A DNA stretch of 64,000 nt from IMG/VR virus record IMGVR_UViG_3300025724_000001, positions 40,721 through 104,720 of that record; one strand, written 5' to 3'. The DNA is from a virus (lineage: Duplodnaviria; Caudoviricetes). The position numbers and the translations under genes were made by a program. Within the stretch, counting starts at the first letter, position 1. Each line of letters opens with the position of its first letter. The notes under the pieces were generated by a model. That model did no database searches and was not told the DNA's origin. It worked only from the letters and a program-made list of their open reading frames with translations. Shown piece by piece: positions 15,901-64,000 of this stretch.

Positions 15901-18900
15901 TTTAGATTAAGAAATACTGGCACTGGTTTTGAAAAACAAAGATTTTTTACGGTTTATAATACTAATACACAAAAGGATGTTTTACTTAGTAATCCCGATG
16001 AAGTTACTACCGGGGCAACCTTGAGAATTGTTGCTTGTGATGATCCTGTGACAACATACTTGGATAATATTGGGTTATATGAGGCGAATATTACTATAAT
16101 TGATCCGTATGATTATTTACATTTTATTTATAATGAAACTGAGACTGTTAAATATTATCAATTATCAGCATCAATGGAAGATGTTGATGGTACGATATAT
16201 TCGGGAACCATTAGTTTACTTCCATGGACTGGTTTAGTTCTTATTGGTTTTGGAACTGTAACTGATGCACCGCCGCCTGAAACACCAACACCAAGTGTTA
16301 GTATTTCTTTAAGTAGAACTCCTACAATTAGCGTAACACCATCGATTTCAAGAACACCGTCGGTTTCGTTTAGTCTAACACCAACAATTAGTGTAACGCC
16401 ATCGATTTCGATAACACCAAGTAATACCCCACCATATCCATCTTCAGGTGTGTTGGGATATTGGAGAATGGATGAAAATAGTGGTAATTTAGAAGATGTT
16501 TTGGGTAGATGTCCAGCAATTCCATATTCAGATTATCCAATAATATACAATGTTGATGGTAAGATTAATACCGCAATTAATTTTAGTGGTACTACTTGTG
16601 GTGCTCGCATTAGTGAAACGAATGCTCAAACATATTTGAATCCGAATGGTGATGAATATAGTATTCAAGCATGGGTAAAATTAAATGAATTACCAAGTGT
16701 TTCCGGTAGAACTTGTACAATACTTAGAAGCTCACTCGCTACTGCACCTTGGGAAAATATTGTGGTTAGGGCTGATAGTTATGATAGGTTCAGTATGAGG
16801 TTTACAGGACCAAGTGATAATAATTACGCATACACAACAGATAATTTAATTCAAGCTAATACATGGTATCATCTTGTATTTGTTATTTCTGGTATTGGAA
16901 AAAGACCAGTAATATATGTTAATAATACACCATATAGTGGTACAACAACACAGGGTGGTAATATTTGGAATGTTACCGGTACTACTGCCGGTTATAACAT
17001 TGGTGGTGCTTATAATGGTGTTCCATTGTCGTTTAATGGTGTTATTGATGAATTGTGTGTGTGGGGACGAGCAGTAACACCCGAAGAGGTTTCTGCGTTG
17101 TATAATAATGGTAATGGCTTACCTTTTGATGGACAAATTTTACCATCAGTCACACCGACAATATCTATTAGTAGAACTCCTAGTATAACGCCTAGTATTT
17201 CATTCAGTAGAACACCAACTAGAACGCCTAGTTTATCAATTAGTAGAACACCGTCCAGAACGCCTAGTATAACACCTAGTAGTTCAGTTTTAACTGCTCG
17301 ATACGTCTCAAGTAGTGGAAGTGACACAAATAATGGATTAACAGAATCCACACCATGGAGAACGTTAGATAAAGTTAATGCTGAGTTTTCGAATTTAAAT
17401 CCTGGTACAGAAATATTATTAAAAAAGGGTGATTCGTTTTATGGTACACTTGTAATAACTAAAAGTGGTACAAGTGGATCTAATAGTCCGTTTGTGTTTG
17501 GTACTTACGGTGATGGTAATGATCCCATTATACATGGTTTTACTACAATAACTGATGGATGGACACATGTTGGTAATAATGTTTATTCACATGATATAAT
17601 TGCTGATGAGCAAACTAATATGGTTCTTGTTAATGGTGTTCAAGTACCAATGGGTAGATGGCCAAACGGAACAACATATAGAACTTATGAGTCGTTTAAT
17701 GGTGCTAGTTCAATAACAGATAATACGTTATCAGAAGAAACGCCATACAATTGGGTTGGTGCTGAGGTCGTGATTAGAATGACTTACTGGATATTGGGTA
17801 GGTTTACTATAACTGGTCATACTGGTAATACAATATCATATAGTGGTAATACAATTGATTATTTATATAACAATTTCGGATATTTTATACAGAATGATAT
17901 AAGAACACTTGATGTTGAAAATGAATGGTATCATGATCATGCTGCCGGTAAGTTTTATATATATGGTAATCCCGCAGGTAAAACAATTCAAATTGCAACA
18001 AAAACAAATATAATTCAAAATCATGGTGGTTATGATTATATAACACTTGAGAATCTTTCATTACAAGGATCAATTGGTGATATTATTTCATTTGATGGTG
18101 GTAATTGGTATAACGCGGCCAATACAATAATACGAAACTGTATTTTAAAATTTGGCGGATCTCGTGGTATTGATATATACGGTAGTAATGGTTTTATTGT
18201 AGATAATATTATTGAACAATGTAATGATAATGCCATACATATTGTATCTGGTAGTAATACGATTGTTACTGGAAACACAATAACAAATATTGGATTACTG
18301 CTTGGTCAATCAAAGAGATTGTCTGCAAATGGAATATATAACGGTGGAACAAATTCATTAATTGATCATAATATTATAAATAATATCGGATTAAATGGTA
18401 TAACTGCTGGTAGTGGAACAAGTGGCATTGTTAAACATAATTTTATTAATAACTATTGTTTAACACTTACAGATGGTGGTGGAATTTATCACGGGCCTAG
18501 TAATCGCTCAATGCCATCTGATTATACAATAGAAAACAATATATGTCTTAATGGTTACGGGAATTATAATGGAACAACAAGTTCAAGTACCTATCTAGCT
18601 GAGGGTATATATCTTGATAGTTATTGTACTGGTCATACAGTACAATATAATATATGTGCACATAACGCAGGTAATGGTATTAAACTTAGTTCCAGTCATG
18701 ATAATATTTTACAATATAATTTGTGTTTTGATAATAAAGAAGCACAGTTATTCTCAAGTGGTTTTTGGTCAGAATATGCGACATTATATAATAACACAAT
18801 AAGATATAATCAGTTTATTGGAAAAGAAATAAATCATTATACATTAAAAGTTTATTTAACAATCGCAGATAATATTTCAAATTATGGTATATCAAATTAT

Positions 18901-20244
18901 AACTATTATGCGAGACCTATAAATCAAGGGTCGAATGATGTTATAATTAGAACAGGACAAAACAGTAATTGGGTTAATCGTACATTATCTGAATGGCGTT
19001 CGTATTCAAATCAGGATGCCAATTCAAACAATTCACTTGCAGGATCGGTGTCAAATTTGGATGATATTCATTTTATTTATAATGAAACGGACGAAAATAA
19101 ATATTATTCATTGTCAGCACCGATGAAAGATGTTGCAAATACAACATATTCGGGTATTATCACACTATCTCCATGGTCGGGATTAGTTCTTCTCGGGCCA
19201 GGAACCGTAACACTGGAGACATCACCAACAATTAGTAGCACACCAACTCCAACTAGAACAACTAGTGTGTCTATTACTAGAACACCGACAAGAACACCTA
19301 GTTTATCGTTTAGTAGGACACCAACTAGAACACCAAGTGTTTCAATAAGTAGGACACCATCAGTTTCATTATCAACACCAACATCAAATTCGATTATTGC
19401 AGATCATAATATAGCAAAACTTTCTAATTTATTAGCAATTCCAAGTAGCGCGATAACCAATGCGAAGTCAAATCTTCACATAGCATATGAACACACATCG
19501 CACGGTGAACAATTGGTTCAGGGTATGACCGGACTGGTTAATTGGAGAGGTTCGACATATTCATTTAATAATGGTGGGTCTGGTGGTGCGTTAGATTTAA
19601 GAGATCACGCAATTGCCCAAATGTTTAGTTGTTGGGGAATGGACCTTGGTAATACAAGATGTCCAAATAACGAACAATATCATTTGTGGGCGGAAAACAC
19701 TCGTACATATTTAGAGACTAATCCTGGTGTTAACGTTGTTATATGGTCTTGGTGTGGGCAAGTAAGTTATGCAACACAAGCTAATATTAACACTTATTTG
19801 ACATTAATGAATCAATTGGAGATTGATTATCCATCAATTAAGTTTGTATATATGACAGGTCATGTTGATGGACAACCATTATCAGGTACATTATTTACTA
19901 ATAATACAATTATAAGAAATTATTGTATTAATAATAATAAAATATTATTTGATTTTGCAGATATTGAAAGTTATGATCCTGATGGTAATTATTATGCAGA
20001 TAAGCGAGTAACAGATTGTTGTAATTATGATTATAATGGAGATGGTATTGTTAGTACTGATGGTGGTGATCCTGGATTACCAACAAATGGAGATAGAAAC
20101 TGGGCGTTAGACTGGCAAAACACACATCAGGTGAATGTTGATTGGTATAATTGTAACTCATCACATTCATATCCACTTAATGCGAATATGAAAGCATATG
20201 CGGCATGGTGGTTATGGGCTAGATTGGGTGGTTGGAGTGGATAA
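9955..20244 (+). CDS. Giant modular virion protein: core domain, three right-handed beta-helix domains, CBM-like, LamG-like and SGNH-like domains joined by S/T/P linkers
   Basis: 3429 aa; YVSSSGDDSNDGLTESTPWRT beta-helix starts; N/I-rich repeats; PEIGAYEY; NLITNGTF; GYWRMDE...WYHLVFV...FNGVIDEL (LamG); HTSHG...LFDFADIES. Confidence 0.8.
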   Translation: MKKKKIILPKLRYENAPETDSQISIGFESDKSLLRGDDRDVVLNLSEQFTEERANCKRYKLYGKMRMVFRNLYAGATSYDYLRERLSLVSDGSDNNFCGYLPYNEFAFLRDDIYYETTESLSVTSLSGFTGFTMVTSGPTEHQTITSVTAPYHNWNLYTSYISGQVDNFPMKYTLSGRTKIEGENVITFTSGDGIPFRVEETEIHYVLTSPVRHGISRGEYILIDGRYYYVNSVGDNIFDSEHYVINILKSQLSGVTFNPLVIGKRCIDIKDTENSTSKYYVHKHTILTSLGDCIIDKVGFESPIWEDEKKVLYENSVGDNDVLVVRNRMEAVLFDSLEPFILTGITNNLGHTPIELYTTIIFRNGNGYFEYPPKVGYSFHMHDSWIDEHFDGSNSIETGLTSTSFTREGFVYPFFSGNSLSKGSELYGAFVEYNPKELKERIISESYHKIVSNKNIFNHGQDLDEVFSGASETNQIGLLYQPHHRFKLKELSPYIEIADDSTPIYNLPENAKYFPNEKLWRWRDVYEDGYIDPDGYGVDHPYLNNIHFVHKDINFYIRNEKIYKNKKDGVINFYRRKDVDECVDDSVIIKRGDAEIPEPSISVSPSVSLSVMPSITPTPTLSVSISITPSISMSSSQGTSSTPSPSLSLTRTPSVTRTPTITRTPTISLSAIPSQTPSVTPTQIYLQIYYIDPSGVDDASRSGGVGEEWATLSYATSRVTTPGSLIYVNAGTYYETSQSNLSAGVSIDGAGRTSCILSATTSLSYFVYAASSAGTNGNQSISNVTFDCNLLVDRGVRFAGRSNVTVHDCGIDNAIYYGLIFSDTTSRSVHVEPTYWATNNNIYNNYLVNCGGDRWNTNDSYWEAYGAIDISGQDGMLIYNNNIDNQTGGRYAYGIKGLSFGGYHKGLKIYNNKIRTNIRDNVGEQSFGFNLELWTGVGGIEIYDNDLNGAIDMGGYGYWDDYSYGFAMKVHHNTIIQDNWPTNQPETGIILECGARDGCYFYSNWVEKFSTGFSLGTTAASLIQGFNGVWVYYNVFCNLGYTSGGAGAGFYGYNLSTGVTIQNFNILNNVIHKVNNSGGLGIAYEYSTPNTWVNTNIKNNIIYNAYSPIQFRNQIVNSVYIHNNLTYGATRTIDNSTSWGNSTIITREILNNQEGVDPLFTLVGTDFTLTSNSPCINTGVDVGLIEDFTGQPVSSPPEIGAYEYVVVVSQTPTITPSISISKTPTRTPSLSVSRTPTISLSNTPSITISRTPTITPTITPTTTPSITISVTPSSTILTARYVSSSGDDSNDGLTESTPWRTITKVNNEFSSLSPGTGILFKRGDVFYGTLTIGRSGTLGNPITIGSYGTGFKPIIEGFTTLNSWTRVGTSSIFYASASFNINPNVGPLVTIDGMIIEKGKYPNMGYNTISTVVTSPAPPIGSPVTITDSSLSSTPNWTGAEIVIRYDRWTLIRSIITDHSGTSLTFNTPYANLPYTGWGYFIQNHIDTLNELGDWYYDSVNQRIYMHFGSGTPGEHIIRATTLDHTVYNNGYLRRFIIIDGIHFRGTAGDNIHIWNNVSNIDIKKCRIEYSGGNAIYQHGGSGSMIDNNDILFSSHNAVHILFPNTTTIINNRIYYTGHYLGYTTTGDTACFVGIKCGSSSNGNNLIENNKIYNTGYLPINFGGAGSIVRRNYIHTYCYNKDDGAGIYIFNDRSGGKLVEENIVLNAVGAGAGTNNPNSSSANGLYTDGGTANVTFIRNIVGNVTRQGYHGNLPVNVTLTGNTFFQCRELMGLWKFGNAGFWDGTGTFITGLNIQHNKFISTDLNRNLAKGIFYENSTTELNGADIYDEIERLGVWNNNYYYTNEECFVYIAHNLYQTNAPYNLERWKSDFGQDLNSSVVVSENQYTLNSIGPNLITNGTFTSGITGWTASSSDLTLDWYSPGIGDGGALSLTSTQNNFYYWWWNNINAAVAHIIGGVVNNSKHYLLRFLGRSTINNKTLSFRLRNTGTGFEKQRFFTVYNTNTQKDVLLSNPDEVTTGATLRIVACDDPVTTYLDNIGLYEANITIIDPYDYLHFIYNETETVKYYQLSASMEDVDGTIYSGTISLLPWTGLVLIGFGTVTDAPPPETPTPSVSISLSRTPTISVTPSISRTPSVSFSLTPTISVTPSISITPSNTPPYPSSGVLGYWRMDENSGNLEDVLGRCPAIPYSDYPIIYNVDGKINTAINFSGTTCGARISETNAQTYLNPNGDEYSIQAWVKLNELPSVSGRTCTILRSSLATAPWENIVVRADSYDRFSMRFTGPSDNNYAYTTDNLIQANTWYHLVFVISGIGKRPVIYVNNTPYSGTTTQGGNIWNVTGTTAGYNIGGAYNGVPLSFNGVIDELCVWGRAVTPEEVSALYNNGNGLPFDGQILPSVTPTISISRTPSITPSISFSRTPTRTPSLSISRTPSRTPSITPSSSVLTARYVSSSGSDTNNGLTESTPWRTLDKVNAEFSNLNPGTEILLKKGDSFYGTLVITKSGTSGSNSPFVFGTYGDGNDPIIHGFTTITDGWTHVGNNVYSHDIIADEQTNMVLVNGVQVPMGRWPNGTTYRTYESFNGASSITDNTLSEETPYNWVGAEVVIRMTYWILGRFTITGHTGNTISYSGNTIDYLYNNFGYFIQNDIRTLDVENEWYHDHAAGKFYIYGNPAGKTIQIATKTNIIQNHGGYDYITLENLSLQGSIGDIISFDGGNWYNAANTIIRNCILKFGGSRGIDIYGSNGFIVDNIIEQCNDNAIHIVSGSNTIVTGNTITNIGLLLGQSKRLSANGIYNGGTNSLIDHNIINNIGLNGITAGSGTSGIVKHNFINNYCLTLTDGGGIYHGPSNRSMPSDYTIENNICLNGYGNYNGTTSSSTYLAEGIYLDSYCTGHTVQYNICAHNAGNGIKLSSSHDNILQYNLCFDNKEAQLFSSGFWSEYATLYNNTIRYNQFIGKEINHYTLKVYLTIADNISNYGISNYNYYARPINQGSNDVIIRTGQNSNWVNRTLSEWRSYSNQDANSNNSLAGSVSNLDDIHFIYNETDENKYYSLSAPMKDVANTTYSGIITLSPWSGLVLLGPGTVTLETSPTISSTPTPTRTTSVSITRTPTRTPSLSFSRTPTRTPSVSISRTPSVSLSTPTSNSIIADHNIAKLSNLLAIPSSAITNAKSNLHIAYEHTSHGEQLVQGMTGLVNWRGSTYSFNNGGSGGALDLRDHAIAQMFSCWGMDLGNTRCPNNEQYHLWAENTRTYLETNPGVNVVIWSWCGQVSYATQANINTYLTLMNQLEIDYPSIKFVYMTGHVDGQPLSGTLFTNNTIIRNYCINNNKILFDFADIESYDPDGNYYADKRVTDCCNYDYNGDGIVSTDGGDPGLPTNGDRNWALDWQNTHQVNVDWYNCNSSHSYPLNANMKAYAAWWLWARLGGWSG

Positions 20245-20257
20245 TTAAATTAATTAA

Positions 20258-21073: not shown

Positions 21074-21075
21074 AA

Positions 21076-22185: not shown

Positions 22186-22216
22186 TTTCATATTTATATA
22201 AATAAAAGAGATAGAA

Positions 22217-23149
22217 ATGGCAATTGGATCTTATGGGACAATAAGGGCGGCTGACGTATCGCCAGAAGATGTAGAAATTTTATATCATTTTACACCCGAT
22301 AGAAAAACTAGTTCACCTGTTACATTAAGAACATTGAACGCAACGTCAATTTTAACACCTGTTTTTCATAATGCAGAAACGGCATTATCATCTGAATCTG
22401 ATCGGCCACCTGTTGCAGATGTGGAAATTCTAGGTGGTATGTATAATTTAAAATTAGAGTCCGAAGATTTTTCTGATTTGGGATACTATACATTACATTT
22501 AAGACCAAAACAAATCAGAACTATTATTAGCGATTGTGGTGTGTTGGCATCATTACCATCGGTTAGGGGTCTTATAATTGATATGTCTAATGTTGTTACG
22601 TCAGATAGAAATAAATTTTCACCACAAAATCTTGTTGGTTATCGTATAGAATATATTAATCCAACAGATAATAAAAAAATTCCTAATTTTTATCGAATGA
22701 TAACATCGAATTTTTATTGTGAACCAATTACAACTAATTTGGTAAATACAAGTCAAAAAGCTATTCGGTATAGGTATTCTGATAATGCAACGAATCTGAT
22801 GTTTTTAACAATAACACCAAGCGCAGCTCCATCGACAAGACCGACAACAGTACCGTATATTGGCCAACCAAATCAAACGATTATTATATCTAATACATAT
22901 TTTAATCCGACAACGATTGAAATTGAGATGGTTGAACATGATATTTCAACGTTGGCGTATGCTCTTTATGGTAATCAGAGCAAGGCCATGTCAAGTGGTA
23001 TTTACACCATTTATGATAAGGATAATAATATTTATAAACAATTTAATTTATACGAAATTAAAGACGAATTTAATGAAACATTATATGAAATTAGAGAAAA
23101 AAGAGATGATATTGATGAATCATTAAATTTTGATACAATTACAGAATAA
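22217..23149 (+). CDS. Putative structural protein
   Basis: 310 aa, preceded by TATTTAT, coupled to the next gene by TAATG overlap. Confidence 0.6.
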   Translation: MAIGSYGTIRAADVSPEDVEILYHFTPDRKTSSPVTLRTLNATSILTPVFHNAETALSSESDRPPVADVEILGGMYNLKLESEDFSDLGYYTLHLRPKQIRTIISDCGVLASLPSVRGLIIDMSNVVTSDRNKFSPQNLVGYRIEYINPTDNKKIPNFYRMITSNFYCEPITTNLVNTSQKAIRYRYSDNATNLMFLTITPSAAPSTRPTTVPYIGQPNQTIIISNTYFNPTTIEIEMVEHDISTLAYALYGNQSKAMSSGIYTIYDKDNNIYKQFNLYEIKDEFNETLYEIREKRDDIDESLNFDTITE

Positions 23150-26100
23150 TGGCACGTTACAAAGTACCTAGTCAAGCCGCAAGCGGCGCGGATTCATTTA
23201 GTGACGATTTAGTTGGTCGTCAAATTACCGAAGGTTCAAGCCTAATGACAGGTACTAATTTTATTATTGAAAAAACTATACCTGAACGTAATACTAAAGA
23301 ATTTCGAACACAACCATTTTCTGATTTTTTAACACTTGATGATATTGTTGACGAAAAGCATGTTATTGAGGATTTTGATAACACAAAAAAAGAAATCAAA
23401 TTTAATAATGACAAAAAGAATGCAGATCGTTCACTTTATGGTTCATTAAAACAGAGAATTAGGGTCGCTATTAATAATATTATTTCTAAGTATCCGGCAG
23501 CAATACAGGTTAATTCAACATTTATTGGTGGTGTTAATTATACTGCAGAGAATATAGTATATTCAAGTCAAACAAACACAACCGAATTTGATGTTCCATA
23601 TAAATTAATATATAATCCTTTAGAAATTATATTAAAAACACCAAAAAGTGGTATTTTACCAGAAACAGATAACAATATACGTAATTTTTATTCTTCCTTT
23701 ACAAAGTATGTTATTGATTTAACTGGTGAAACTTTTAATATTATATCGTATTCTGAACCTGATTCAAATAATAGAATAACATTAAGGGTTGATGGTAATT
23801 GTTTTAATGGATATTCTGCATTTACCAAAAACTATCTTATTAGGCCAACAGATGGAATTGTTGAAAATTTTTATGAACAATTAGATGATCTTGAGCGGGT
23901 TTTAATTAATAGAGAAACAAATCCAAAATTTACTGCTGCGTTTAATGTACCAAGGGATAGTAGTGATGGTTCATCAACTGAAACTGTTACTATAAATGTA
24001 AATTGGCCAATATCTAATGACGGTTGGAACATATCAATTGTTGGTTTATTATTTGATTATTATATAGATAAGATAAGTTCTTTGGCTGATGAAGTCGATA
24101 ATTATAAATCTAATTTAATTGTTAGATTTTTAACATCACCTCAATTATATGAATTTGATACGGATGATAAAAAAATCGAAGCCGTTTTCCAAATTTATGG
24201 TCGGGCATTTGATAATGTGAAAAAATTTATTGATAACATTGCGTATATGAGAAATGTAAGCTACGATGGTATCAATAATGTTCCTGATATTTTATTAAAA
24301 AACCTAGCTGAAACATTAGGATTATCAACAATAAATTTATTCACTGAAAAAACACTTGAAGAGTCACTTTATACGCGACACGACACTCAATATGATGGTG
24401 TTTCATTAGGAACTAATTTGATTGAGGCCGAATATGAATTTTATAGAAGAATATTAGTTAATCTGGCGTTTCTTTATAAATCAAAAGGAACTAGAACAGC
24501 AATTGAATTTTTCTTAAAATTTATTGGTGCACCGGAGCCAATGATTAGATTGGATGAATATGTTTATAAAGTTGATGGATCACTTCCATCGCAAACAATC
24601 GAAGACGATATTAGAAATGTAATTCAGAGTCAGGTGTCGTCTAGTGTGATGACATGGGATGAAAATCTTTCTGGTTATACATTAACGCGGTTTTCGGGTG
24701 AGACGAGATTAACGAGAGACAAATATCCGGTTGATGAAGACACTGGATTTCCAAGAGGTATTGAATATCCTGATGGCTCGATGTTTTTTCAAAAAGGTGC
24801 GGGGTGGTATAAACGAACACTACATCACAGATCATCAGAGGTGATTGATTATGATAATTCCAATTTAACTGGACGAACCAAAGTAATTAAAACCAAACCC
24901 GCCCCATTTACATATGGGGAAGATTATTTCGATGTTTATAGACAACTTCCAGGATTAAATTATGGGTATTCGTTAGTTTCCAATGTTGATAATAAAAAAA
25001 TTGAGTTAGTAGATGATGAGGCAATATCAAGGTTAACATTAAATAGAAAAAATGTTAATGTGTTTTTGTCTGCCGATAGAGCAATTGATTATGACATATA
25101 TCGAAAATCCAGAGATTTAATGTTGAATTTTGGTGTGTTAACACCACAAACAGGGGTAACATTTGCTGAATTTTTGAGTAATGTAACAAATGACATTATA
25201 AGTAATTCCCATGTTGTTAAATATCAGAATACATATGATAGTCTATTGAGAGTATATTGGGCTTATCAGAACCAAATATTATTTACACCATATAACTATA
25301 TTTCGGTAAATGAATTTATTAACAGATTAAGTCCATATTGGGTTGATATTATCGAACAATTTATTCCTGCAACAACATTATGGCTGGGTGGAAATTTAAT
25401 TGAAAATAGTATATTCAATAGATCAAAATACAAACATAAAAGACCAGTGGGGTCGACAGCATATATTGAAGTTTTATATCCTGATTTTGAAACAGTAATC
25501 GTTGAAGATCTAAGAACATTTATAGGCGGTGGAACTGTAGATAATACTAGTTATGAAAGTTATTTTAGGGGTTTAACATCGTTTTATGGTGTTTCATATA
25601 CAATTACATTAGAGATTAATGGAACTGTTTATAGTAGACAAACAGGTAATTTAAGAACATTCACTGGATTTACACCGACAAGTCCGTGTACAAGGTTAAC
25701 ACCAACAACAGAATCAATACCTCTTATATGTGATTATGTGGGAAGTACTTTATTTAGTGAGATTAACGCAATTGAAAATATGCGAGATGAGTGGAAAGAT
25801 ATAGTTAATACGTTAGTCGAAGAAATAAGTACCGATGAAAATAGTGAATATACGGTAACTGCAGTGTTTTGCAATACACCGGATAATGTAGAATACGTCG
25901 CATTTACTGTCACACCAAAAGATAACACTCGTATAATCGAATCGTTTGATTATTATTTTACACCATCATATGGCTTATATCATGATGAAACCAATATGGA
26001 GGCAAGAGTTGAACCTATTAACACATTAATTTTTAGTGGTGATAGTAATTGTGAGTTATATACTGATATTAACATATTAACAAACATATATGGCTATATA

Positions 26101-37646: not shown

Positions 37647-38468
37647 ATGGTTAAAAAAATAGTACATATTTCGGATATTCATATCAGAACAAATCAATTA
37701 CACGATTTATATAAAAGACAATTTGAATTGTTTTTTAATGATTTACAAAAAAAATTATACACAGATGTGGATAATAAATTTCAAGTGTGTGATTATAGAA
37801 TAGTAATTACTGGTGATTTATTTCATCAAAAAATAAACATATCGAATGAATTGATAATGTTGGTTTCTTGGTTTATTGACAAGTTGACGGATTTGGGTCA
37901 TGTTGTTATTATTCCAGGTAATCACGATTTTTTAGTTAATAATACCGAACGACTTGATAGTATAACTCCAATTGTGGAATTATTAGATAAACCAGATAAA
38001 ATATACTATTATAACGAAAGTGATGTGTATAAAGATGATGGGATATATTGGGTTGTTTATTCATTATATCAAAATAATCAAAGACCAAAATTTGAAAAGG
38101 AAGTTGGTGTTTATCATGTGGGGTTATTTCACGGCCCAATACAGGGTTTATCAACTGATCTAGGTTATAAGTTTGATGATGGTTATGATACGTTAAATTT
38201 TGTTGATTTAGATCTTTTACTATGTGGAGATATACACAAAAGACAAAAATTTAAATTACCTGATGGTGGTGATGCTATAATGATTGGTAGTTTTATACAG
38301 CAAGATTTTGGTGAAACTGTAAACCATCATGGATATGGAATATTTGATATGGAAACAAAAGAATATACTTTCCATGATTTACCAAATGAACAACCATTTT
38401 TACATTTTAAGTTAAATGACATTAAAGATATTGAAACCGAAAGTGAGCGTCTCATTAATCTTGGATGA
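37647..38468 (+). CDS. Mre11/SbcD-like metallophosphoesterase nuclease (T4 gp47-like)
   Basis: HISDIH, ITGDLFH, PGNHD, LFHG, GDIHKRQ, IGSFIQQDFGE. Confidence 0.88.
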   Translation: MVKKIVHISDIHIRTNQLHDLYKRQFELFFNDLQKKLYTDVDNKFQVCDYRIVITGDLFHQKINISNELIMLVSWFIDKLTDLGHVVIIPGNHDFLVNNTERLDSITPIVELLDKPDKIYYYNESDVYKDDGIYWVVYSLYQNNQRPKFEKEVGVYHVGLFHGPIQGLSTDLGYKFDDGYDTLNFVDLDLLLCGDIHKRQKFKLPDGGDAIMIGSFIQQDFGETVNHHGYGIFDMETKEYTFHDLPNEQPFLHFKLNDIKDIETESERLINLG

Positions 38469-47675: not shown

Positions 47676-47690
47676 TGATATTTATTAGAT

Positions 47691-49333: not shown

Positions 49334-49362
49334 ATATGTATATTTTTTAAAAATAATTTAAT

Positions 49363-51169: not shown

Positions 51170-51249
51170 AATATAAAAGATAAACAATTAATTTGTTTTT
51201 TTCCATTATTTTCGTTACATTTTAATTTGTATATTGAATTATTTAAAAT

Positions 51250-52092: not shown

Positions 52093-52106
52093 TCTATTTA
52101 TAGTAG

Positions 52107-52427: not shown

Positions 52428-52433
52428 TTTTTC

Positions 52434-52703: not shown

Positions 52704-52756
52704 TACAAATAACCCAAAAAAATCATTCATTTTTGTTAACATAACTTTTATAAAAG

Positions 52757-52786
52757 TATTTATCTGAAAGTAACTTCAGATAAATG
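52757..52786 (+). promoter_or_regulatory. Late-promoter motif inside an 11-bp hairpin that covers the start codon
   Basis: ATTTATCTGAA (52758-52768) pairs with TTCAGATAAAT (52775-52785); ATG at 52784. Confidence 0.65.
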
Positions 52787-55700: not shown

Positions 55701-56047
55701 GGGGTGTATCTTCCGAATTACCAACAGCAGAAATGATTGCGTCAATCATATCTGGTGGTACTGCAAATAAAGTATTATCACAAGCATCGGGTACGTTGAG
55801 TATTAATTATAACATACCGAGCTCGTGGTTATATATATGGGTTGCATATCAATCAAATTATACAACAAAAACTAAGTGGTATATCACGGCATTAAATAAT
55901 GGTGATATAGATGGTAGTTTTATAACAATAGCAACGACACAATTAGTCAATAGTCCTGATAATTATTGGAATGGCATAAACTTTAAAATGCATTGGAGTG
56001 TATATCCAACACAATTGGATTCGCCAATAGAATATAGAAATACTTAA
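52784..56047 (+). CDS. Fibre-like protein with Gly-X-Ser repeats and two pairs of duplicated globular domains
   Basis: 1087 aa; (G-[ST]-S)n tracts; domain A at about 53021 and 53576; domain B (EGHLAIWRYS...) at about 54011 and 54644. Confidence 0.8.
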   Translation: MALQKINWTQIDSANVPSGTTVDLGSTQTPIDNTFVKTLYIGEYENPDILHNFHWYLSGLTPCTGETGSSGTSGTSGVSGDLYTTTSNSILTISAGSKTLIVEPDLSYVPGHTIVIGHSASNYMRGIVSSYNSTTGQLIAIISTVVGSGTYNTWGVGLTSVPGPSGSSGTSGTSGSSGLSGVDGTSGSSGISGVDGSSGTSGTSGSSGISGVDGTSGSSGTSGLSGVDGTPGSSGSSGTSGTSGSSGISGVDGSSGTSGTSGLSGDLFSTVSNSSLTLGTGIQFLIVERGLSYVTGQRVVVAYDSTNYMLGIVDSYDPQTGLLVVNSQLINGSGTYNEWSVGLAGISGEDGTSGTSGTSGSGGSSGSSGSSGTSGIAGTSGSSGTSGLSGVDGTPGSSGTSGTSGLEGVEGHLAIWRYSEVMNTSINPGVGFFTLDAPDWGVSPNYIAISDTGFTPNLDFITYLDSLQTGTIIKLIKKNDATVLKYLEIISLEPYELGFERYGVTQIAGTGADPMNGDEFLVLMTGMRGATGISGTSGTSGSSGQDGTSGTSGIRGADGTSGTSGTSGVRGLPGIPGSSGTSGTSGVRGLPGLPGTSGSSGTSGSSGVSGSSGTSGSSGIEGHLAIWRYSNVLNTAINPGLGYFTLDAPNWGMSPTTIAISDTGYTPNLSFETYIDTISNGSIIKIIKVQDGTVLKYLQVVGNPVYENGYERFNVIQIAGTGDNPLQDDEFTITVISGAGGGTYTGDTSCELTECDNGGIVLEETPDGYSICTLYNSRLDPLLATPESVGGIPVGTTVSQLTGKTLVEIVDDLLFPAVLPTYTIPTIALNGVTSGIREVGWTLTSDLRTYGIKNDAGPYTQMRVLRNGSPLLTDTTLTQSPATAIPSQFGYPDPNNPNYRYDSDIHSESYVIPLGSTTYRGDGNYNAGLPKQDNKGNVDTRPFAVRTTSAPQSAANLFVTSTYTITGIYPYFWGVSSELPTAEMIASIISGGTANKVLSQASGTLSINYNIPSSWLYIWVAYQSNYTTKTKWYITALNNGDIDGSFITIATTQLVNSPDNYWNGINFKMHWSVYPTQLDSPIEYRNT

Positions 56048-56054
56048 TATATAG

Positions 56055-59000
56055 ATGGCTATAAATCTTAACGACAATATTAATTTAAAGGCTCCAAAAA
56101 TTTTAGATTGGAGATACGGTCCTTGGGTTAGTGTTTTAGAGGCAAATACAAGTATATCATTAGAACAAAGACAACGAGGGTTAACTGTTGGTATATTGTC
56201 TGGTACTGGTATTAACGAATATTGGTATTATGCTGGAATAACTGATTCTGATTTAATATTAAAAACTATTGGTGGCGGCTCAGGCGAATCTGGTACATCT
56301 GGTACATCAGGCACTAGTGGTGAATCTGGAACTTCGGGCACTAGTGGTAGTTCAGGTTCTTCGGGTATTTCTGGTATTGACGGTTCATCTGGTACATCTG
56401 GAACGTCTGGAACAAGTGGAAGTAGTGGTGAATCTGGTAGTTCGGGAACATCTGGTATTGATGGTACATCTGGAACGTCTGGAACAAGTGGAAGTAGTGG
56501 CGAATCTGGTAGTTCAGGAACATCTGGTATTGATGGCTCATCTGGTACATCAGGGACAAGTGGTAGTTCGGGTATATCAGGTATAGATGGTTCATCAGGT
56601 ACATCTGGCAGTTCGGGATCTAGTGGTAGTTCTGGAACTAGTGGTTCTTCTGGATTTTCTGGAACTGATGGTAGTTCTGGAACATCAGGTAGTTCGGGTT
56701 CGAGTGGTTCGTCGGGGATATCTGGTGATAGATATATGGCGACATCAACAGACACGTTAACGATTAGTGGTGGTACACAAACTTTAAATATTGGTAGTGG
56801 TTATTCATATAGTGCTGGACAATCATTGGTGATTGGTTATGATAGTTCGAACTATATGACGGGTATGGTTTCATCATATGATCCGGTAACCGGTATTTTG
56901 GTTGGGAATATTGTAGATGTAACAGGATCTGGCACATATAGTGAATGGGATATAAATTTAGCGGGTGCTCAAGGTGCTGATGGTTCCAGTGGTAGTTCGG
57001 GTACATCTGGAACATCAGGTTTATCAGGTTCTTCTGGAACTTCTGGAAGTGGTGGTACTTCAGGAACAAGTGGTAGTTCAGGATCTTCAGGTATTTCTGG
57101 TATTGACGGATCATCGGGTACTAGTGGTGAGTCTGGTACTTCAGGTACTAGTGGTAGTTCTGGTATTGACGGATCATCAGGCACGTCTGGTAGTTCTGGT
57201 TTGTCTGGAGTTGACGGTACTTCGGGAAGCTCGGGTTCATCTGGGACGAGTGGTTCTTCAGGCACTAGTGGTGGATCTGGTTTTGATGGAACATCTGGAA
57301 GTTCTGGTTCATCTGGAACATCAGGAACTAGTGGTACGTCAGGATTAAGTGGTAGTTCTGGTACATCTGGTAGTTCGGGATCAAGTGGTTCATCTGGATT
57401 ATCTGGCGATAGATATTTGGCAACATCAACAAACACGTTAACAATTAGTGGTGGAACACAAACATTAAATATAGGTACTGGATATTCATATAGTGCGGGT
57501 CAATCATTAGTTATTGGTTATGATAGCACAAATTATATGACGGGTATGGTATCGTCATATGATCCAATGACAGGCGAATTAGTTGGTGATATTATAGATG
57601 TTACAGGATCTGGCACATATAGTGAATGGGATATAAATTTAGCTGGCGCTCAAGGCGCTGATGGCTCTTCGGGTACATCTGGCACATCAGGAACGTCTGG
57701 TATATCAGGTAGTTCTGGTACTTCAGGTAGTTCTGGTAGTAGTGGAACATCTGGTTTAAGTGGATCATCCGGAACGAGCGGTAGTTCTGGCATAACGGGT
57801 GAAGATGGTTCTTCGGGTACGTCTGGTACTAGTGGTAGTTCAGGAACAAATGGTTCATCAGGTACATCAGGATCGAGTGGATCAGATGGTTCATCTGGAA
57901 CAAGTGGATCGTCTGGTAGTAGTGGTATTGATGGTTCATCAGGAACAAGTGGTTCATCTGGTAGTGGTGGCACATCTGGAACAAGCGGTAGTTCTGGTAT
58001 ATCTGGTGTTGATGGCACATCGGGTAGTTCTGGTAGTAGTGGTACATCAGGATCAGGTGGTTCATCAGGAACAAGCGGTAGTTCTGGCAGTTCGGGCACA
58101 AGTGGGAGTTCTGGTTCATCAGGAACAAGTGGCAGTTCTGGAACATCAGGAAATAGTGGGACATCTGGTAGTTCGGGTTCGTCTGGTACTAGTGGAACTT
58201 CAGGGAGTTCTGGTTCATCAGGAACAAGTGGTTCGTCAGGTAGTTCCGGCACCTCTGGATCAAGTGGTAGTTCAGGAACAAGCGGCTCGTCTGGAACTAG
58301 TGGTAGTTCAGGGAGTTCGGGTACATCAGGATCGAATGGGTCATCTGGCACTTCAGGCACTTCAGGTTCTAGTGGTAGTAGTGGCTCGTCGGGATTTTCT
58401 GGTGACAGATATTTAGCCACATCAACGGATACGTTAACAATTAGTGGTGGAACACAAACATTAAATATTGGTACTGGTTATTCATACAGTGCCGGACAGT
58501 CTTTGGTTATTGGACATGACGGCACAAATTATATGACAGGAATAGTTTCGTCATACGATCCGATAACAGGATTAATGGTTGGAGACATTCAAACTGTCGA
58601 AGGATCTGGTACATATAGTGAATGGGATATAAATTTAGCTGGAGCACAGGGGGCTGATGGTTCAAGTGGTTCATCTGGTTCATCAGGCACATCAGGTGTG
58701 TCAGGTTCATCTGGATCTTCTGGATCTTCTGGAACGAGCGGAACATCAGGTAGTTCTGGAAGTTCAGGTACAAATGGTTCGTCTGGAACTAGTGGTAGTA
58801 GTGGATCATCCGGTACGTCTGGATCAAGTGGCTCGTCTGGAACTAGTGGTAGTTCTGGAAGTTCGGGTACATCAGGATCAAGTGGATCAGATGGTTCGTC
58901 TGGAACTAGCGGTAGTAGTGGCTCATCAGGATCGTCTGGTACGTCTGGATCAAGCGGCTCGTCTGGAACTAGTGGTAGTTCTGGAAGTTCGGGTACATCA

Positions 59001-62000
59001 GGATCAAGTGGATCGGCCGGATCGTCAGGAACTTCAGGTACTAGTGGTTCTAGTGGCTCATCTGGTACAAGTGGTTCATCAGGATCATCGGGTACTAGTG
59101 GTTCTAGTGGTAGTTCTGGTTTATCTGGTAGTAGTGGCACGTCAGGATCATCGGGTAGTTCTGGAACTAGTGGAACATCGGGGAGTTCTGGAAGCTCTGG
59201 TACATCTGGTTCTAGTGGTAGTTCTGGAACAAGTGGTTCATCAGGATCTAGTGGTAGTTCCGGTACTTCAGGATCAAGTGGTTCAAATGGTAGTTCTGGT
59301 ACTTCGGGTACTAGTGGTACATCAGGAAGTTCAGGTTCATCTGGAACATCCGGTAGTTCAGGTTCATCTGGTACTTCTGGTTCTAGTGGTAGTTCTGGAA
59401 CAAGTGGCTCGTCTGGAACATCCGGTAGTTCTGGTTCATCTGGTACTTCAGGATCAAGTGGTTCGGATGGTAGTTCTGGTACTTCTGGTTCTAGTGGTAG
59501 TAGTGGCTCGTCAGGTTTTTCTGGTGATAGATATTTGGCCACATCAACTGATACATTAACGATTAGCGGTGGAACACAAACTTTAAATATAGGAACCGGA
59601 TACTCATATAGTGCTGGACAATCATTGGTTATTGGTCATGATGGTACTAATTATATGACTGGTATTGTTTCATTTTATGATCCAACAACTGGATTAATGG
59701 TTGGAGATATTCAAACTATTGAAGGATCTGGCACATATAATGAATGGGATATAAATTTAGCTGGTGCTCAAGGTGCTGACGGATCAAGTGGTTCATCTGG
59801 AACATCGGGGACATCAGGTATATCGGGTAGTTCGGGTACATCAGGATCTTCTGGAACGAGCGGAACATCTGGAAGTTCTGGTAGTTCGGGTATAAGTGGT
59901 AGTAGTGGAACATCAGGAAGTTCTGGGTCGTCGGGAACTTCTGGTTCAAGTGGATCGTCTGGAACTAGCGGCAGCTCTGGTTCATCTGGAACATCAGGTT
60001 CTAGTGGTTCTGACGGATCATCTGGCACTAGTGGTAGTAGTGGATCATCGGGAACATCGGGTTCTAGTGGCTCCGATGGGTCTTCTGGTACATCTGGTTC
60101 TAGTGGTTCTGACGGATCATCTGGCACTAGTGGTAGTTCAGGATCATCAGGAACTAGTGGTATAGATGGTTCATCTGGAACATCTGGTTCGTCGGGTATA
60201 AGTGGATCATCAGGAACTAGCGGATCTTCAGGTAGTGGTGGTTCATCTGGCACGTCAGGAACTAGTGGTAGTTCGGGTTCAAGTGGTAGTGCGGGGTCTT
60301 CTGGTAGTAGCGGTACATCAGGAAGTTCTGGAACATCAGGTTCATCTGGAACAAGTGGGTCGTCTGGTAGTAGTGGTGTGTCGGGAACTGATGGTTCATC
60401 AGGAACGTCTGGGTCTAATGGTTCTGACGGTTCTTCTGGTACTAGTGGAACATCTGGCGTAAGTGGTTCATCTGGCACTAGTGGTAGTTCAGGTTCATCT
60501 GGGACTAGTGGGAACTCTGGAACGTCAGGGACATCTGGCTCTAGTGGTTCAGATGGGTCTTCTGGTACTAGTGGCACATCAGGTTCAGGTGGAACATCTG
60601 GATCGTCAGGAAGTTCCGGAACTAGTGGTAGTAGTGGATCATCTGGTAGTTCTGGAACTAGTGGTAGTTCTGGGTTATCAGGAACATCTGGAAGTTCAGG
60701 AAGTTCTGGTACAAGTGGGTCTGATGGTTCATCTGGAACATCGGGAACAAGTGGAACATCAGGATCATCAGGTACTTCTGGAAGTAGTGGTTCATCTGGT
60801 ACTAGTGGCACGTCAGGTAGTAGTGGATCTTCTGGTACAAGCGGATCGTCGGGTAGTTCGGGTACGTCAGGATCAAGTGGTACATCTGGCACATCAGGTA
60901 GTTCGGGGTCATCTGGAACATCTGGGTGGTCGGGTGATAGATATTTGGCCACATCGACTGATACCTTAACAATTGGTTATGGAACACAAACTTTAAATAT
61001 TGGTAGTGGTTATTCATATAGTGCAGGACAATCATTAATTATTGGTTATGACAGTTCAAATTATATGACTGGTATTGTTTCGTCATATAATCCAGTAACT
61101 GGTGTTTTAGTTGGTAATGTATTAGATGTAACAGGATCTGGCACATATAGTGAATGGGATATAAATTTAGCTGGCGCTCAAGGCGCTGATGGCTCTTCGG
61201 GTACATCTGGCACATCAGGATCAAGTGGATCGGTCGGATCATCAGGAACTTCAGGTACTAGTGGTTCTAGTGGTTCATCGGGTAGCTCAGGAACATCTGG
61301 TAGTTCAGGTATTTCTGGTATTGATGGTTCATCTGGAACATCTGGTTCGGGTGGTAGTAGTGGGACATCTGGTAGTTCTGGTTCATCTGGAACATCTGGT
61401 AGTTCTGGTTCTTCGGGTATATCTGGAACTAGTGGTACATCGGGAAGTTCGGGGAGTTCGGGTACTAATGGTTCATCTGGAACATCTGGTAGTTCTGGTA
61501 CATCTGGAAGTTCAGGAACTAGTGGTTTAGATGGTTCGTCAGGTACTAGTGGTACGTCTGGATCTAGTGGATCAAATGGTTCGTCAGGTACTAGTGGTAC
61601 ATCTGGAAGTTCTGGTAGCTCTGGAACGTCAGGTAGTTCTGGAACAAGTGGTTCTTCGGGTAGTTCTGGCACATCTGGTTCTAGTGGTGTTAGTGGGTCT
61701 TCAGGTACATCTGGAAGCTCGGGATCAAGTGGTGTAGATGGTACCTCTGGTACAAGCGGAACATCAGGAACTGGTGTTTCTGGAACAACATATAATGATT
61801 TTTATTATGATCCCGACACAAAAACGTTGTTTGTTTCAAATATACATTTAACTGGTTCTTCAATTACAGCAACCAATATTCCCGTTGTAGAAGATACAGG
61901 AACAAAATTGGTATTAAGTGGTAATGTTATATGTGAAGTTACAAATATAACTACTGGCACATCAGGAACTAGTGGAACTTCTGGTAGTTCTGGTATTTCA

Positions 62001-63131
62001 GGTTCGTCTGGAACATCTGGAAGTTCAGGAAGTTCCGGTACTAGTGGCAGTTCTGGTATTTCTGGGTCATCAGGAACATCAGGTTCTAGTGGTTCTGACG
62101 GATCTTCGGGTACTAGTGGTAGTTCTGGGTTATCAGGAAGTTCTGGTACTAGTGGCAGTTCTGGTATTTCTGGGTCATCTGGAACATCAGGAAGTAGTGG
62201 TAGTTCTGGAACATCTGGAAGTTCAGGTTTGTCAGGAACATCAGGTAGTAGTGGTAGTTCTGGAACATCTGGTAGTTCGGGTATAAGTGGTAGTAGTGGT
62301 ACATCAGGAAGTAGTGGTAGTTCAGGTTCATCTGGTATATCTGGTGTTGATGGATCATCAGGCACATCTGGAAGTTCTGGAATATCTGGTTCATCAGGAA
62401 CATCTGGAAATAGTGGTAGTTCTGGTACATCTGGAAGTTCTGGTATTTCAGGTTCATCAGGAACATCTGGTACTAGTGGTAGTTCTGGACTATCTGGTAT
62501 TGATGGAACATCGGGAAGCTCAGGATCGAGTGGAACATCTGGTAGTTCTGGTATTTCAGGTTCGTCTGGAACATCTGGTAGTTCTGGTATTTCAGGTTCG
62601 TCTGGAACATCTGGAAGTTCTGGAATATCAGGCACATCAGGAACATCTGGCAGTTCTGGTTCATCTGGAACATCTGGTTCGGGTGGTAGTAGTGGAACAT
62701 CTGGCAGTTCTGGTTCATCTGGTATATCTGGTGTTGACGGATCATCAGGTACATCTGGTAGTTCTGGAATATCAGGTTCGTCTGGAACATCTGGTATTTC
62801 AGGTTCATCTGGAACATCTGGAAGTTCTGGAACATCTGGTAGTTCTGGATTATCAGGTATTGATGGAACATCTGGTAGTTCTGGAACATCTGGTAGTTCT
62901 GGATTATCAGGTATTGATGGAACATCTGGTAGTTCTGGAACATCTGGTGTGTCTGGCGCGTCTGGAACATCAGGTACAAGTGGTACATCACCAAATATGG
63001 ATGATTATATTACTAACACATGTGATATTTGGACGGGTACAGGAAAAGTAACTTGTATTGTAACATTAACTCAACTAGAATATGATGCAATTGGTACAAA
63101 AAACCCAAATACTTTATATGTAATAATTTAA
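56055..63131 (+). CDS. Giant Gly-X-Ser repeat (collagen/polyglycine-II-like) fibre protein
   Basis: 2358 aa; Gly every third residue over most of its length; five copies of a ~85-aa domain; C-terminal LTQLEYDAIGTKNPNTLYVI motif. Confidence 0.85.
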   Translation: MAINLNDNINLKAPKILDWRYGPWVSVLEANTSISLEQRQRGLTVGILSGTGINEYWYYAGITDSDLILKTIGGGSGESGTSGTSGTSGESGTSGTSGSSGSSGISGIDGSSGTSGTSGTSGSSGESGSSGTSGIDGTSGTSGTSGSSGESGSSGTSGIDGSSGTSGTSGSSGISGIDGSSGTSGSSGSSGSSGTSGSSGFSGTDGSSGTSGSSGSSGSSGISGDRYMATSTDTLTISGGTQTLNIGSGYSYSAGQSLVIGYDSSNYMTGMVSSYDPVTGILVGNIVDVTGSGTYSEWDINLAGAQGADGSSGSSGTSGTSGLSGSSGTSGSGGTSGTSGSSGSSGISGIDGSSGTSGESGTSGTSGSSGIDGSSGTSGSSGLSGVDGTSGSSGSSGTSGSSGTSGGSGFDGTSGSSGSSGTSGTSGTSGLSGSSGTSGSSGSSGSSGLSGDRYLATSTNTLTISGGTQTLNIGTGYSYSAGQSLVIGYDSTNYMTGMVSSYDPMTGELVGDIIDVTGSGTYSEWDINLAGAQGADGSSGTSGTSGTSGISGSSGTSGSSGSSGTSGLSGSSGTSGSSGITGEDGSSGTSGTSGSSGTNGSSGTSGSSGSDGSSGTSGSSGSSGIDGSSGTSGSSGSGGTSGTSGSSGISGVDGTSGSSGSSGTSGSGGSSGTSGSSGSSGTSGSSGSSGTSGSSGTSGNSGTSGSSGSSGTSGTSGSSGSSGTSGSSGSSGTSGSSGSSGTSGSSGTSGSSGSSGTSGSNGSSGTSGTSGSSGSSGSSGFSGDRYLATSTDTLTISGGTQTLNIGTGYSYSAGQSLVIGHDGTNYMTGIVSSYDPITGLMVGDIQTVEGSGTYSEWDINLAGAQGADGSSGSSGSSGTSGVSGSSGSSGSSGTSGTSGSSGSSGTNGSSGTSGSSGSSGTSGSSGSSGTSGSSGSSGTSGSSGSDGSSGTSGSSGSSGSSGTSGSSGSSGTSGSSGSSGTSGSSGSAGSSGTSGTSGSSGSSGTSGSSGSSGTSGSSGSSGLSGSSGTSGSSGSSGTSGTSGSSGSSGTSGSSGSSGTSGSSGSSGSSGTSGSSGSNGSSGTSGTSGTSGSSGSSGTSGSSGSSGTSGSSGSSGTSGSSGTSGSSGSSGTSGSSGSDGSSGTSGSSGSSGSSGFSGDRYLATSTDTLTISGGTQTLNIGTGYSYSAGQSLVIGHDGTNYMTGIVSFYDPTTGLMVGDIQTIEGSGTYNEWDINLAGAQGADGSSGSSGTSGTSGISGSSGTSGSSGTSGTSGSSGSSGISGSSGTSGSSGSSGTSGSSGSSGTSGSSGSSGTSGSSGSDGSSGTSGSSGSSGTSGSSGSDGSSGTSGSSGSDGSSGTSGSSGSSGTSGIDGSSGTSGSSGISGSSGTSGSSGSGGSSGTSGTSGSSGSSGSAGSSGSSGTSGSSGTSGSSGTSGSSGSSGVSGTDGSSGTSGSNGSDGSSGTSGTSGVSGSSGTSGSSGSSGTSGNSGTSGTSGSSGSDGSSGTSGTSGSGGTSGSSGSSGTSGSSGSSGSSGTSGSSGLSGTSGSSGSSGTSGSDGSSGTSGTSGTSGSSGTSGSSGSSGTSGTSGSSGSSGTSGSSGSSGTSGSSGTSGTSGSSGSSGTSGWSGDRYLATSTDTLTIGYGTQTLNIGSGYSYSAGQSLIIGYDSSNYMTGIVSSYNPVTGVLVGNVLDVTGSGTYSEWDINLAGAQGADGSSGTSGTSGSSGSVGSSGTSGTSGSSGSSGSSGTSGSSGISGIDGSSGTSGSGGSSGTSGSSGSSGTSGSSGSSGISGTSGTSGSSGSSGTNGSSGTSGSSGTSGSSGTSGLDGSSGTSGTSGSSGSNGSSGTSGTSGSSGSSGTSGSSGTSGSSGSSGTSGSSGVSGSSGTSGSSGSSGVDGTSGTSGTSGTGVSGTTYNDFYYDPDTKTLFVSNIHLTGSSITATNIPVVEDTGTKLVLSGNVICEVTNITTGTSGTSGTSGSSGISGSSGTSGSSGSSGTSGSSGISGSSGTSGSSGSDGSSGTSGSSGLSGSSGTSGSSGISGSSGTSGSSGSSGTSGSSGLSGTSGSSGSSGTSGSSGISGSSGTSGSSGSSGSSGISGVDGSSGTSGSSGISGSSGTSGNSGSSGTSGSSGISGSSGTSGTSGSSGLSGIDGTSGSSGSSGTSGSSGISGSSGTSGSSGISGSSGTSGSSGISGTSGTSGSSGSSGTSGSGGSSGTSGSSGSSGISGVDGSSGTSGSSGISGSSGTSGISGSSGTSGSSGTSGSSGLSGIDGTSGSSGTSGSSGLSGIDGTSGSSGTSGVSGASGTSGTSGTSPNMDDYITNTCDIWTGTGKVTCIVTLTQLEYDAIGTKNPNTLYVII
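56276..62990 (+). repeat. 9-nt-period GGN-(ACN/AGT/TCN)-(TCN/AGT) repeat tracts interrupted by five ~260-nt domain repeats
   Basis: Domain copies start at about 56724, 57405, 58401, 59523 and 60933 (GDRY.ATST...WDINLAGAQGADG). Confidence 0.9.
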
Positions 63132-63193
63132 ATGTACTTTAATTTTAATAATTAATTGTTTAATTTTCGTTGATTGTTGTTTTGTAGATTTTT

Positions 63194-64000
63194 ATGAGTG
63201 ATTTTTTATTTGAAACAAATTATCCTCCGGCAATATATCTGGGTGACAACACCGTTAAATCAATAAGGGTGGGTAATACTATTGTATGGCCTAGAACACC
63301 AACACCATCAGCTTCAGTATCACCAACACCAGGTGCTTCAGTAACACCTAGTGTTTCATTTAGTAAAACTCCTAGTATCACACCCACTATTTCATTTAGC
63401 AGAACTCCTAGCATTACACCGAGTATTTCATTTAGCAGAACTCCTAGCATAACACCTAGTATTTCATTTAGTAGAACACCAAGTATTAGCATCACACCGA
63501 GTATATCGTTTAGTAGAACACCTAGCATTACACCGAGTATTTCATTCAGTAAAACACCTAGCATAACGCCTAGTATATCATTTAGTAGAACACCAAGTAT
63601 AACACCATCAATATCGTTTAGTAGAACACCAAGTATAACACCATCAATATCGTTTAGTAGAACACCTAGCATTACACCGAGTATTTCATTCAGTAGAACA
63701 CCAAGCATATCGTTCTCAAGAACACCAAGTATTAGCATCACACCGAGTATATCGTTTAGTAGAACACCTAGCATTACACCGAGTATTTCATTCAGTAAAA
63801 CACCTAGCATAACGCCTAGTATATCATTTAGCAGAACACCTAGCATAACACCAAGTATTTCATTTAGCAGGACACCCAGCATTACACCAAGTATTAGCAT
63901 CACACCGAGTATATCGTTTAGTAGAACACCTAGCATTACACCGAGTATTTCATTCAGTAGAACACCAACTAGAACGCCTAGTTTATCAATTAGTAGAACA
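63194..64000 (+). CDS. S/T/P-repeat virion protein (3' truncated; absent from ORF track)
   Basis: ATG at 63194: MSDFLFETNYPPAIYLGDNTVKSIRVGNTIVWPRTPTPS, then (SRTPSITPSISF)n open to the window end. Confidence 0.85.
   Translation, partial: MSDFLFETNYPPAIYLGDNTVKSIRVGNTIVWPRTPTPSASVSPTPGASVTPSVSFSKTPSITPTISFSRTPSITPSISFSRTPSITPSISFSRTPSISITPSISFSRTPSITPSISFSKTPSITPSISFSRTPSITPSISFSRTPSITPSISFSRTPSITPSISFSRTPSISFSRTPSISITPSISFSRTPSITPSISFSKTPSITPSISFSRTPSITPSISFSRTPSITPSISITPSISFSRTPSITPSISFSRTPTRTPSLSISRT
63345..64000 (+). repeat. Tandem 36-nt repeat encoding SRTPSITPSISF
   Basis: Roughly 17-18 imperfect units, with longer exact internal duplications. Confidence 0.9.

Follow-up and report, generated by a model that had tools for sequence, protein, structure and literature searches.

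The stretch of DNA analysed here, hereafter the window, comprises 64,000 nucleotides (nt), namely bases 40721-104720 of the virus record IMGVR_UViG_3300025724_000001, which is 104,720 nt long and rated about 34% complete; window position 64000 is the last base of the record, and the end of the window is thus the end of the contig. The source is an uncultured large phage of the myovirus type with giant tail- or baseplate-associated proteins. Five genes on the plus strand of the window encode proteins with spacers rich in Ser, Thr and Pro (S/T/P), hereafter linkers: a virion protein of 1,702 amino acids (aa; 4837-9945), one of 3,429 aa (9955-20244), one of 2,568 aa (23149-30855), a 613-aa protein (30876-32717), and a gene cut by the contig end, of which only the 5' part is seen (63194-64000; hereafter the end gene). 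Altogether 16 linker segments were mapped in six open reading frames (ORFs), that is, in all five genes for which the initial annotation of this DNA had reported the linker family and in a further ORF at the start of the contig. Comparison with near-identical wild strains revealed that whole domains between two linkers are repeatedly lost, with junctions inside the linkers. Within the window, a 57-nt sequence is identical between linkers of two genes 46.7 kb apart.

Linkers and domains of the giant tail proteins

The 3,429-aa protein consists of a conserved core of 595 aa followed by five appended domains (D2-D6), among which D2 belongs to no clear family, D3 and D5 are right-handed beta-helices, D4 is a Laminin_G_3 domain and D6 is unassigned. 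The nearest cellular relatives of D5 are multidomain proteins, and the few of these with a named source come from Bacteroidota or Saccharibacteria. Five linkers are found in this gene, at 11740-12012 (linker 1), 13573-13782 (linker 2), 16252-16455 (linker 3, inside which one public contig begins), 17137-17298 (linker 4) and 19195-19392 (linker 5), all on the plus strand like the linkers of the other genes. The 1,702-aa gene has two linkers, at 9121-9255 and 9580-9708; the 2,568-aa gene has an array at 27091-27717 and linkers at 29641-29724, 29962-30114 and 30412-30570; the 613-aa gene has three; and the end gene encodes 27 N-terminal residues and then, from 63275 on, a linker array of at least 242 aa with a period of 36 nt and internal exact repeats of up to 113 nt. 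Linkers make up about 10% of the length of these genes and lie between independently folding domains, the Pfam domains Beta_helix and Laminin_G_3 being located between them.

At the DNA level, the linkers are S/T/P-rich with a biased codon usage (ACA for 67% of Thr codons and CCA for 63% of Pro codons), and share exact matches of 8-14 nt in one and the same codon phase, which confirms that a repeated DNA stretch marks the module boundaries. In fact, among all ten linker pairs of the 3,429-aa gene, 51 of 51 exact matches of at least 10 nt are in phase, and so is every match of at least 8 nt in the three pairs that were tabulated. Because the codon phase is shared, any homology-guided crossover between linkers would automatically be in frame.

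Loss of whole domains at linker junctions

Contigs of near-identical strains were gathered from JGI, ENA, NCBI and Logan assemblies by looking up exact protein sequences of neighbouring genes. When the C-terminal third of the 3,429-aa protein was used as a homology query, proteins of 1,668 and 978 aa with 97-100% identity were detected, in which the conserved core and linker 1 are fused straight to linker 4 or linker 5, respectively. Besides these, the gene exists in wild strains in forms of 2,261, 1,674 and 998 aa, so that with the full-length form there are at least six architectures in all, and nucleotide alignment of the encoding contigs gives junction flanks that are 99.7-99.98% identical to the window. 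The 1,668-aa form was found in at least six samples, from SPAdes-type, JGI and Logan pipelines, the 1,674-aa form in two samples, and at least two other assemblies contain the 3,429-aa form in full.

The junctions of these forms can be placed at single-nucleotide resolution. Linker 1 is joined to linker 4 through a microhomology of 12 nt in the 1,668-aa form (11925-11936 and 17208-17219) and of 10 nt in the 1,674-aa form (11945-11954 and 17210-17219); it is joined to linker 5 through 13 nt in the 978-aa form (11921-11933 and 19274-19286) and 10 nt in the 998-aa form (11930-11939 and 19223-19232); and in the 2,261-aa form linker 2 is joined to linker 4 through 8 nt (13702-13709 and 17206-17213). 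Linker 1 is thus the left partner of four junctions and linker 5 the right partner of two. All five distinct junctions are in frame and inside linkers. Moreover, both junctions between linkers 1 and 4 are located at the two longest matches available, and one of those between linkers 1 and 5 at a match tied for the longest. Considering that these three junctions use the longest or tied-longest matches and that the matches are in phase, the choice of junction follows homology, by which the frame is guaranteed. The k-mers of de Bruijn graph assemblers are normally longer than 8-13 nt, and joins at microhomologies of this size therefore need real reads and are not graph artefacts.

The other linker genes show the same tendency. 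One strain has lost aa 1440-1586 of the 1,702-aa protein, precisely the domain that the two linkers enclose, so that all six large-deletion junctions (five in the 3,429-aa gene and one here) lie in linkers; the breakpoints in linkers that the initial annotation expected from a comparison of orthologues are thus found. Six strains compared for the 2,568-aa gene have 0-7 residue differences, and their insertions or deletions (indels) are all losses of 2 or 3 array units (24 and 36 aa). Length polymorphism of the tandem repeats by whole units is seen in this gene and in the end gene, whose array has at least 17 units in the window strain versus 12 or 13 in others.

The same arrays also break assemblies. 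Public contigs often begin or end in them, as do the start and the end of the contig studied here: for example, contigs L022, L025 and L027 start at window positions 12000, 16389 and 17223, and five contigs (L024 and L026-L029) break off within the array of the 2,568-aa gene, after 1,377-1,386 aa. A single-base indel divides the 3' part of the 3,429-aa gene into ORFs of 386 and 874 aa in L025 (positions 1-3855; JGI 3300010345), which is either a frameshifted allele or a sequencing error. Repeat indels occur outside the S/T/P family as well, since the window holds at 52784-63131 two collagen-like Gly-X-Ser fibre genes (1,087 and 2,358 aa), and in the 2,358-aa one the strains differ by repeat indels of 42 and 18 aa and are otherwise identical.

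A 57-nt identity between two genes

The initial annotation had pointed out an exact 57-nt identity, and this is borne out: the window contains two exact copies of the 57-mer and no more, at 17194-17250 within linker 4 of the 3,429-aa gene (copy 1) and at 63944-64000 in the last unit of the 36-nt-period array of the end gene (copy 2, the final 57 bases of the contig), both on the plus strand and both in frame, encoding the same 19 residues. Three of the deletion junctions described above, the two between linkers 1 and 4 and that between linkers 2 and 4, also fall inside copy 1, at 17206-17219.

The 57-nt match is real and not due to chance. It is true that linker codons are biased as given above, which favours a reading where the same peptide received the same codons by accident. 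However, windows of different linkers that encode the same peptide share only 46% of their codons; from the linker codon usage, 19 identical codons have P ~6e-8, and none of 100 shuffles gave two matches of the 57-mer. Such an accident is so improbable that it can practically be neglected. For comparison, exact matches between different linkers among the 16 segments have a median length of 12 nt and, the 57-mer apart, reach at most 27 nt, the latter in a truly paralogous region.

The last 90 nt of the contig can be divided into 58 nt that recur identically in an upstream array unit and 32 nt that recur identically in linker 4, with an overlap of 25 nt. This pattern fits a real junction as well as an assembly-graph mis-join, and therefore an artefact test was made. 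In the case of an artefact, the assembler would have taken the last 32 bases from linker 4 through the 25-nt stretch common to the array units and linker 4; in line with this, copy 2 ends exactly at the contig end and public contigs often break in these linkers. Against it, the end gene is read through in four independent assemblies made with different assemblers (the 126-kb contig L015/L016 of JGI 3300010342, L017 of ENA ERZ27257436, L018 of ENA ERZ27257459 and L019 of JGI 3300009676), and all four carry copy 2 at the same place in the same gene with 56 of 57 bases identical. The sole difference is at 63996, where they have A (Lys) and the window has G (Arg). The terminal sequence of the contig is therefore authentic, and misassembly, which the initial annotation had named as one outcome that would overturn its reading, is highly improbable.

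The four assemblies also reveal what lies beyond the contig end. The complete end gene of other strains encodes 1,800-1,812 aa, and in all four strains that have it the sequence diverges from linker 4 two bases past the block, continues with about 2.5 further linker units and leads into a domain that is no beta-helix and has its paralogue in a part of the 2,568-aa protein. This bears on another possibility, that a long second copy of linker 4 and its beta-helix domain, collapsed in the assembly, begins with the 57 nt. The contig does stop at 64000, as it would at the edge of a long repeat, and the array of the window strain differs from the others, with more units and with G instead of A at 63996. 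Yet besides the divergence after two bases, a contig of another sample assembled with k=31 (L027) begins at window position 17223, so that the predicted end of the repeat lies 30 nt further on, as would be expected from a graph branch at 17252/17253. A long second copy is thus improbable, and the assembler probably stopped at 64000 because an exact 57-nt repeat stands there at the end of an expanded tandem array. The suggestion that the match may be longer past 64000 turns out correct by about 2 nt in other strains, and the suggested continuation into the beta-helix domain is not what the four assemblies have.

With the ends known, the match takes the form of an identity island of 54-59 nt. 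In the window strain, the two copies are about 80% identical over the 44 nt on the left of the block; in other strains, the end gene agrees exactly with linker 4 over 54 nt, and the flanking 60 nt are 60% identical on the left and 50% on the right. Such a sharp-edged island between diverged paralogous sequences is as expected of a gene-conversion tract. It is present at both loci in all strains examined, wherever both loci are seen, and the 126-kb contig holds both copies. Considering that the island is 54-59 nt long versus at most 27 nt in other linker pairs, some sequence transfer between these two loci 46.7 kb apart is needed, most likely as a short ectopic exchange (a gene-conversion-like patch) or a recently copied unit between linker 4 and the unit that closes the first array of the end gene. 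An exact search with the 57-mer among viral contigs and with a 36-mer among metagenome contigs gave no match, which has little weight since close records are apparently absent from both sets.

Several further observations concern the end gene and the two ends of the record. Directly downstream of the complete end gene, L015 (22633-27077) encodes a 907-aa protein with Glycos_transf_1 and Methyltransf_21 matches and a second protein, of 709 aa or more, with a Glyco_transf_9 match; these glycosyltransferase genes are candidates for glycosylating the Ser/Thr-rich linkers, and are the only hint of linker O-glycosylation. The repeat has also caused annotation artefacts, the source annotation of L015 placing the start of the end gene at 17803 where 17140 is correct and calling an antisense ORF of 156 aa (17166-17636, minus strand) within the linker array; long antisense ORFs also lie over arrays in the window, for example at 63220-63936 on the minus strand. 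The sixth linker ORF is located outside the window, at 3-563 of the record, where it is cut by the contig start and encodes 74 aa of the same linker family and then a 113-aa domain. A circularly permuted arrangement with the contig end and the contig start joined in one gene was dropped, as the complete tail of the end gene and the downstream genes in L015 are unlike the first bases of the contig. Between the contig start and the rest of the contig no long exact match was found (14-18 nt), and the break there is therefore not explained by a repeat within the contig. At 16232-16351 of the record, 24.4 kb before the window, an intergenic gap holds a perfect 14-bp tandem repeat of at least nine copies.

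Linker repeats as probable recombination joints

Traces of exchange on a longer time scale can be sought in the paralogous domains of these genes. Three paralogous domain blocks with 66-79% aa identity, bounded by linkers, are found among four genes: D4 aligns in full with residues 902-1128 of the end gene at 79% identity; a segment of the 2,568-aa protein (residues 1489-2168) has a 67% identical counterpart at residues 186-863 of the end gene; and the 2,568-aa and 613-aa proteins have paralogous C-termini, comprising the last 251 aa, where the homology begins in a linker. In relatives at about 50% protein identity (L009-L011), the 595-aa core stands alone, as a protein of 593-616 aa that ends where linker 1 begins in the window, and the appended domains are absent within 21.8 kb of sequence. 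The neighbours of this core orthologue carry large Thr/Pro arrays of their own, very long at 15479-17089 of L009 and 13814-17608 of L010, one of them about 290 aa, and in another gene of a distant relative a unit of about 60 aa with K-T-P-L-Y at its end occurs nine times. The repeat habit is thus clade-wide, though with a different unit.

Based on these results, the following mechanism is proposed. The giant tail or baseplate proteins would be strings of folded domains joined by S/T/P-rich spacers, and the spacers would be encoded by dispersed repeats of about 36 nt (12 aa) in one codon phase, with a core of 8-13 nt around Arg-Thr-Pro codons. Annealing, slippage or crossover between two linkers would then yield an in-frame product, the phase being common. 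In natural populations, single whole domains or several adjacent ones have repeatedly been removed from between two linkers of the same gene and the number of array units has changed, as observed here; over longer times, linker joints may have bounded the domain cassettes that are now common to four genes. We regard linker repeats acting as recombination joints, with the 57-nt island as a short exchange or copied unit, as the best explanation, with a probability of about 0.75.

On the other hand, there might have been no exchange between genes at all, if the island were the leftover of one old copying event, or the product of homogenisation within the array plus chance, and if linkers changed only by slippage and deletion inside a gene. 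Every event directly observed is indeed intragenic, the island is common to all strains, and the G at 63996 is also the consensus of the array itself. Nevertheless, an island of this length between genes so far apart exceeds anything in the other linker pairs, and cassettes at 66-79% aa identity are common to several genes and have their ends at linkers. We therefore consider this alternative unlikely, though far from negligible.

Several points weigh against linker repeats as the joints, or restrict what can be claimed for them. At the junction in the 1,702-aa gene, the two linkers match exactly over only about 4 nt, and selection for the reading frame, rather than homology, may matter more there. 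The 1,674-aa and 998-aa forms could have given rise to the 1,668-aa and 978-aa forms by secondary small deletions, so that the independent large deletions could be perhaps three, not five. In contig L024 (5400-6300, about 12155-13055 of the window), a patch of about 900 nt is about 23% divergent and has both ends inside D2 and not in linkers; elsewhere the gene of L024 is more than 99.9% identical to the window, and the patch looks like an import from a divergent lineage. Regarding the island, base 63996 and the sequence past 64000 are, for the window strain, deduced from other strains and not from reads, and since 54 nt of it are common to all strains examined, it does not represent a fresh event in the window strain. 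Finally, among the close strains examined no domain moved from gene to gene, the only changes being losses and changes of unit number.

In the light of these points, the recombination scenario of the initial annotation needs to be reshaped. Its recent gene conversion between linkers keeps the island, which is what a short ectopic exchange would leave, and loses the recency. The shuffling of domains among virion proteins agrees with the paralogous blocks that end at linkers, but the events observed are losses within one gene. Breakpoints do lie in linkers at all six large-deletion junctions and the array indels, with those of the one mosaic patch outside. Regarding the machinery, genes for an Mre11/SbcD-like metallophosphoesterase (37647-38468) and an SbcC/Rad50-like ATPase (39711-42053) are present on the plus strand; nothing links them to the junctions, and microhomology of 4-13 nt would fit replication slippage or annealing equally well as SbcCD-like machinery, and no dedicated plug-in system was seen.

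A bolder idea, which we consider rather unlikely, is that the in-phase linkers form an evolved recombination grammar, by which the tail proteins would behave as an 'accordion' that loses and regains depolymerase-like and lectin-like cassettes at high frequency, the regain being by crossover with co-infecting long-form genomes. If this were true, the population would always hold several fibre architectures (3,429, 2,261, 1,674, 1,668, 998 and 978 aa) as a hedge against changes of the host surface, and identity islands of at least 50 nt would permit exchange between different genes. In any case, at least six wild architectures of one gene provide a ready system for tracking the domain content of a receptor-binding or depolymerase-bearing protein against its hosts over time. 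There is also a practical warning, that linker arrays break metagenomic assemblies and that gene callers mis-start genes or call antisense ORFs there.

Comparison with known systems

Pro/Thr-rich interdomain linkers are well known in secreted bacterial glycoside hydrolases and other multidomain surface proteins, where they are flexible spacers that connect catalytic to binding domains. The linkers described here are similar in composition and in their spacer position; however, those of glycoside hydrolases are described as protein features and not as DNA-level recombination joints in a virus population. In tandem-repeat contingency loci, repeat number changes by slipped-strand mispairing, and likewise in the phage genes the number of array units differs by whole units between otherwise identical strains. 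Unlike in contingency loci, the changes keep the frame and alter the spacer length or the domain content, with no on/off switch of expression.

Among phages, the antireceptors of Streptococcus thermophilus phages have collagen-like repeats separating their domains (PMC5601072, citing Duplessis and Moineau 2001). In both cases a low-complexity coding repeat separates the domains of a host-recognition protein and flanks a variable region; the differences are that theirs are Gly-X-Y repeats in small siphoviruses instead of S/T/P repeats, and that in the text of that source no comparable series of multi-kb in-frame deletions was seen. In the distal tail-fibre and adhesin genes of T-even phages, glycine-rich motifs of gp38 flank hypervariable segments, and recombination takes place between the conserved motifs (PMC12032242, citing Tetart et al. 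1998 and Trojet et al. 2011). As in gp37/gp38, short conserved repeated stretches are the proposed in-frame crossover points, between which modules are exchanged or removed. Relative to the T-even system as it is presented there, the joints here are low-complexity Ser/Thr/Pro spacers encoded in 36-nt repeats, whereas the T-even motifs are structural and rich in glycine; the spacers connect complete folded domains (80-820 aa), and the largest of the proteins has 3,429 aa; and the direct evidence is an allelic series of domain losses in near-identical wild strains and not swaps of adhesin specificity.

A search of a limited body of literature for S/T/P or Pro/Thr (PT) linkers as recombination joints in phage fibres gave no direct precedent. 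Our analysis thus adds a well-documented example to a known mode of phage-fibre evolution, and its main value is the strain-level allelic series with nucleotide-resolved junctions. Modular exchange in fibres is usually deduced from distant comparisons; here, strains that are about 99.8% identical give junctions resolved to the nucleotide, and therefore the mechanism can be read directly, as in-phase microhomology of 8-13 nt with a preference for the longest matches.

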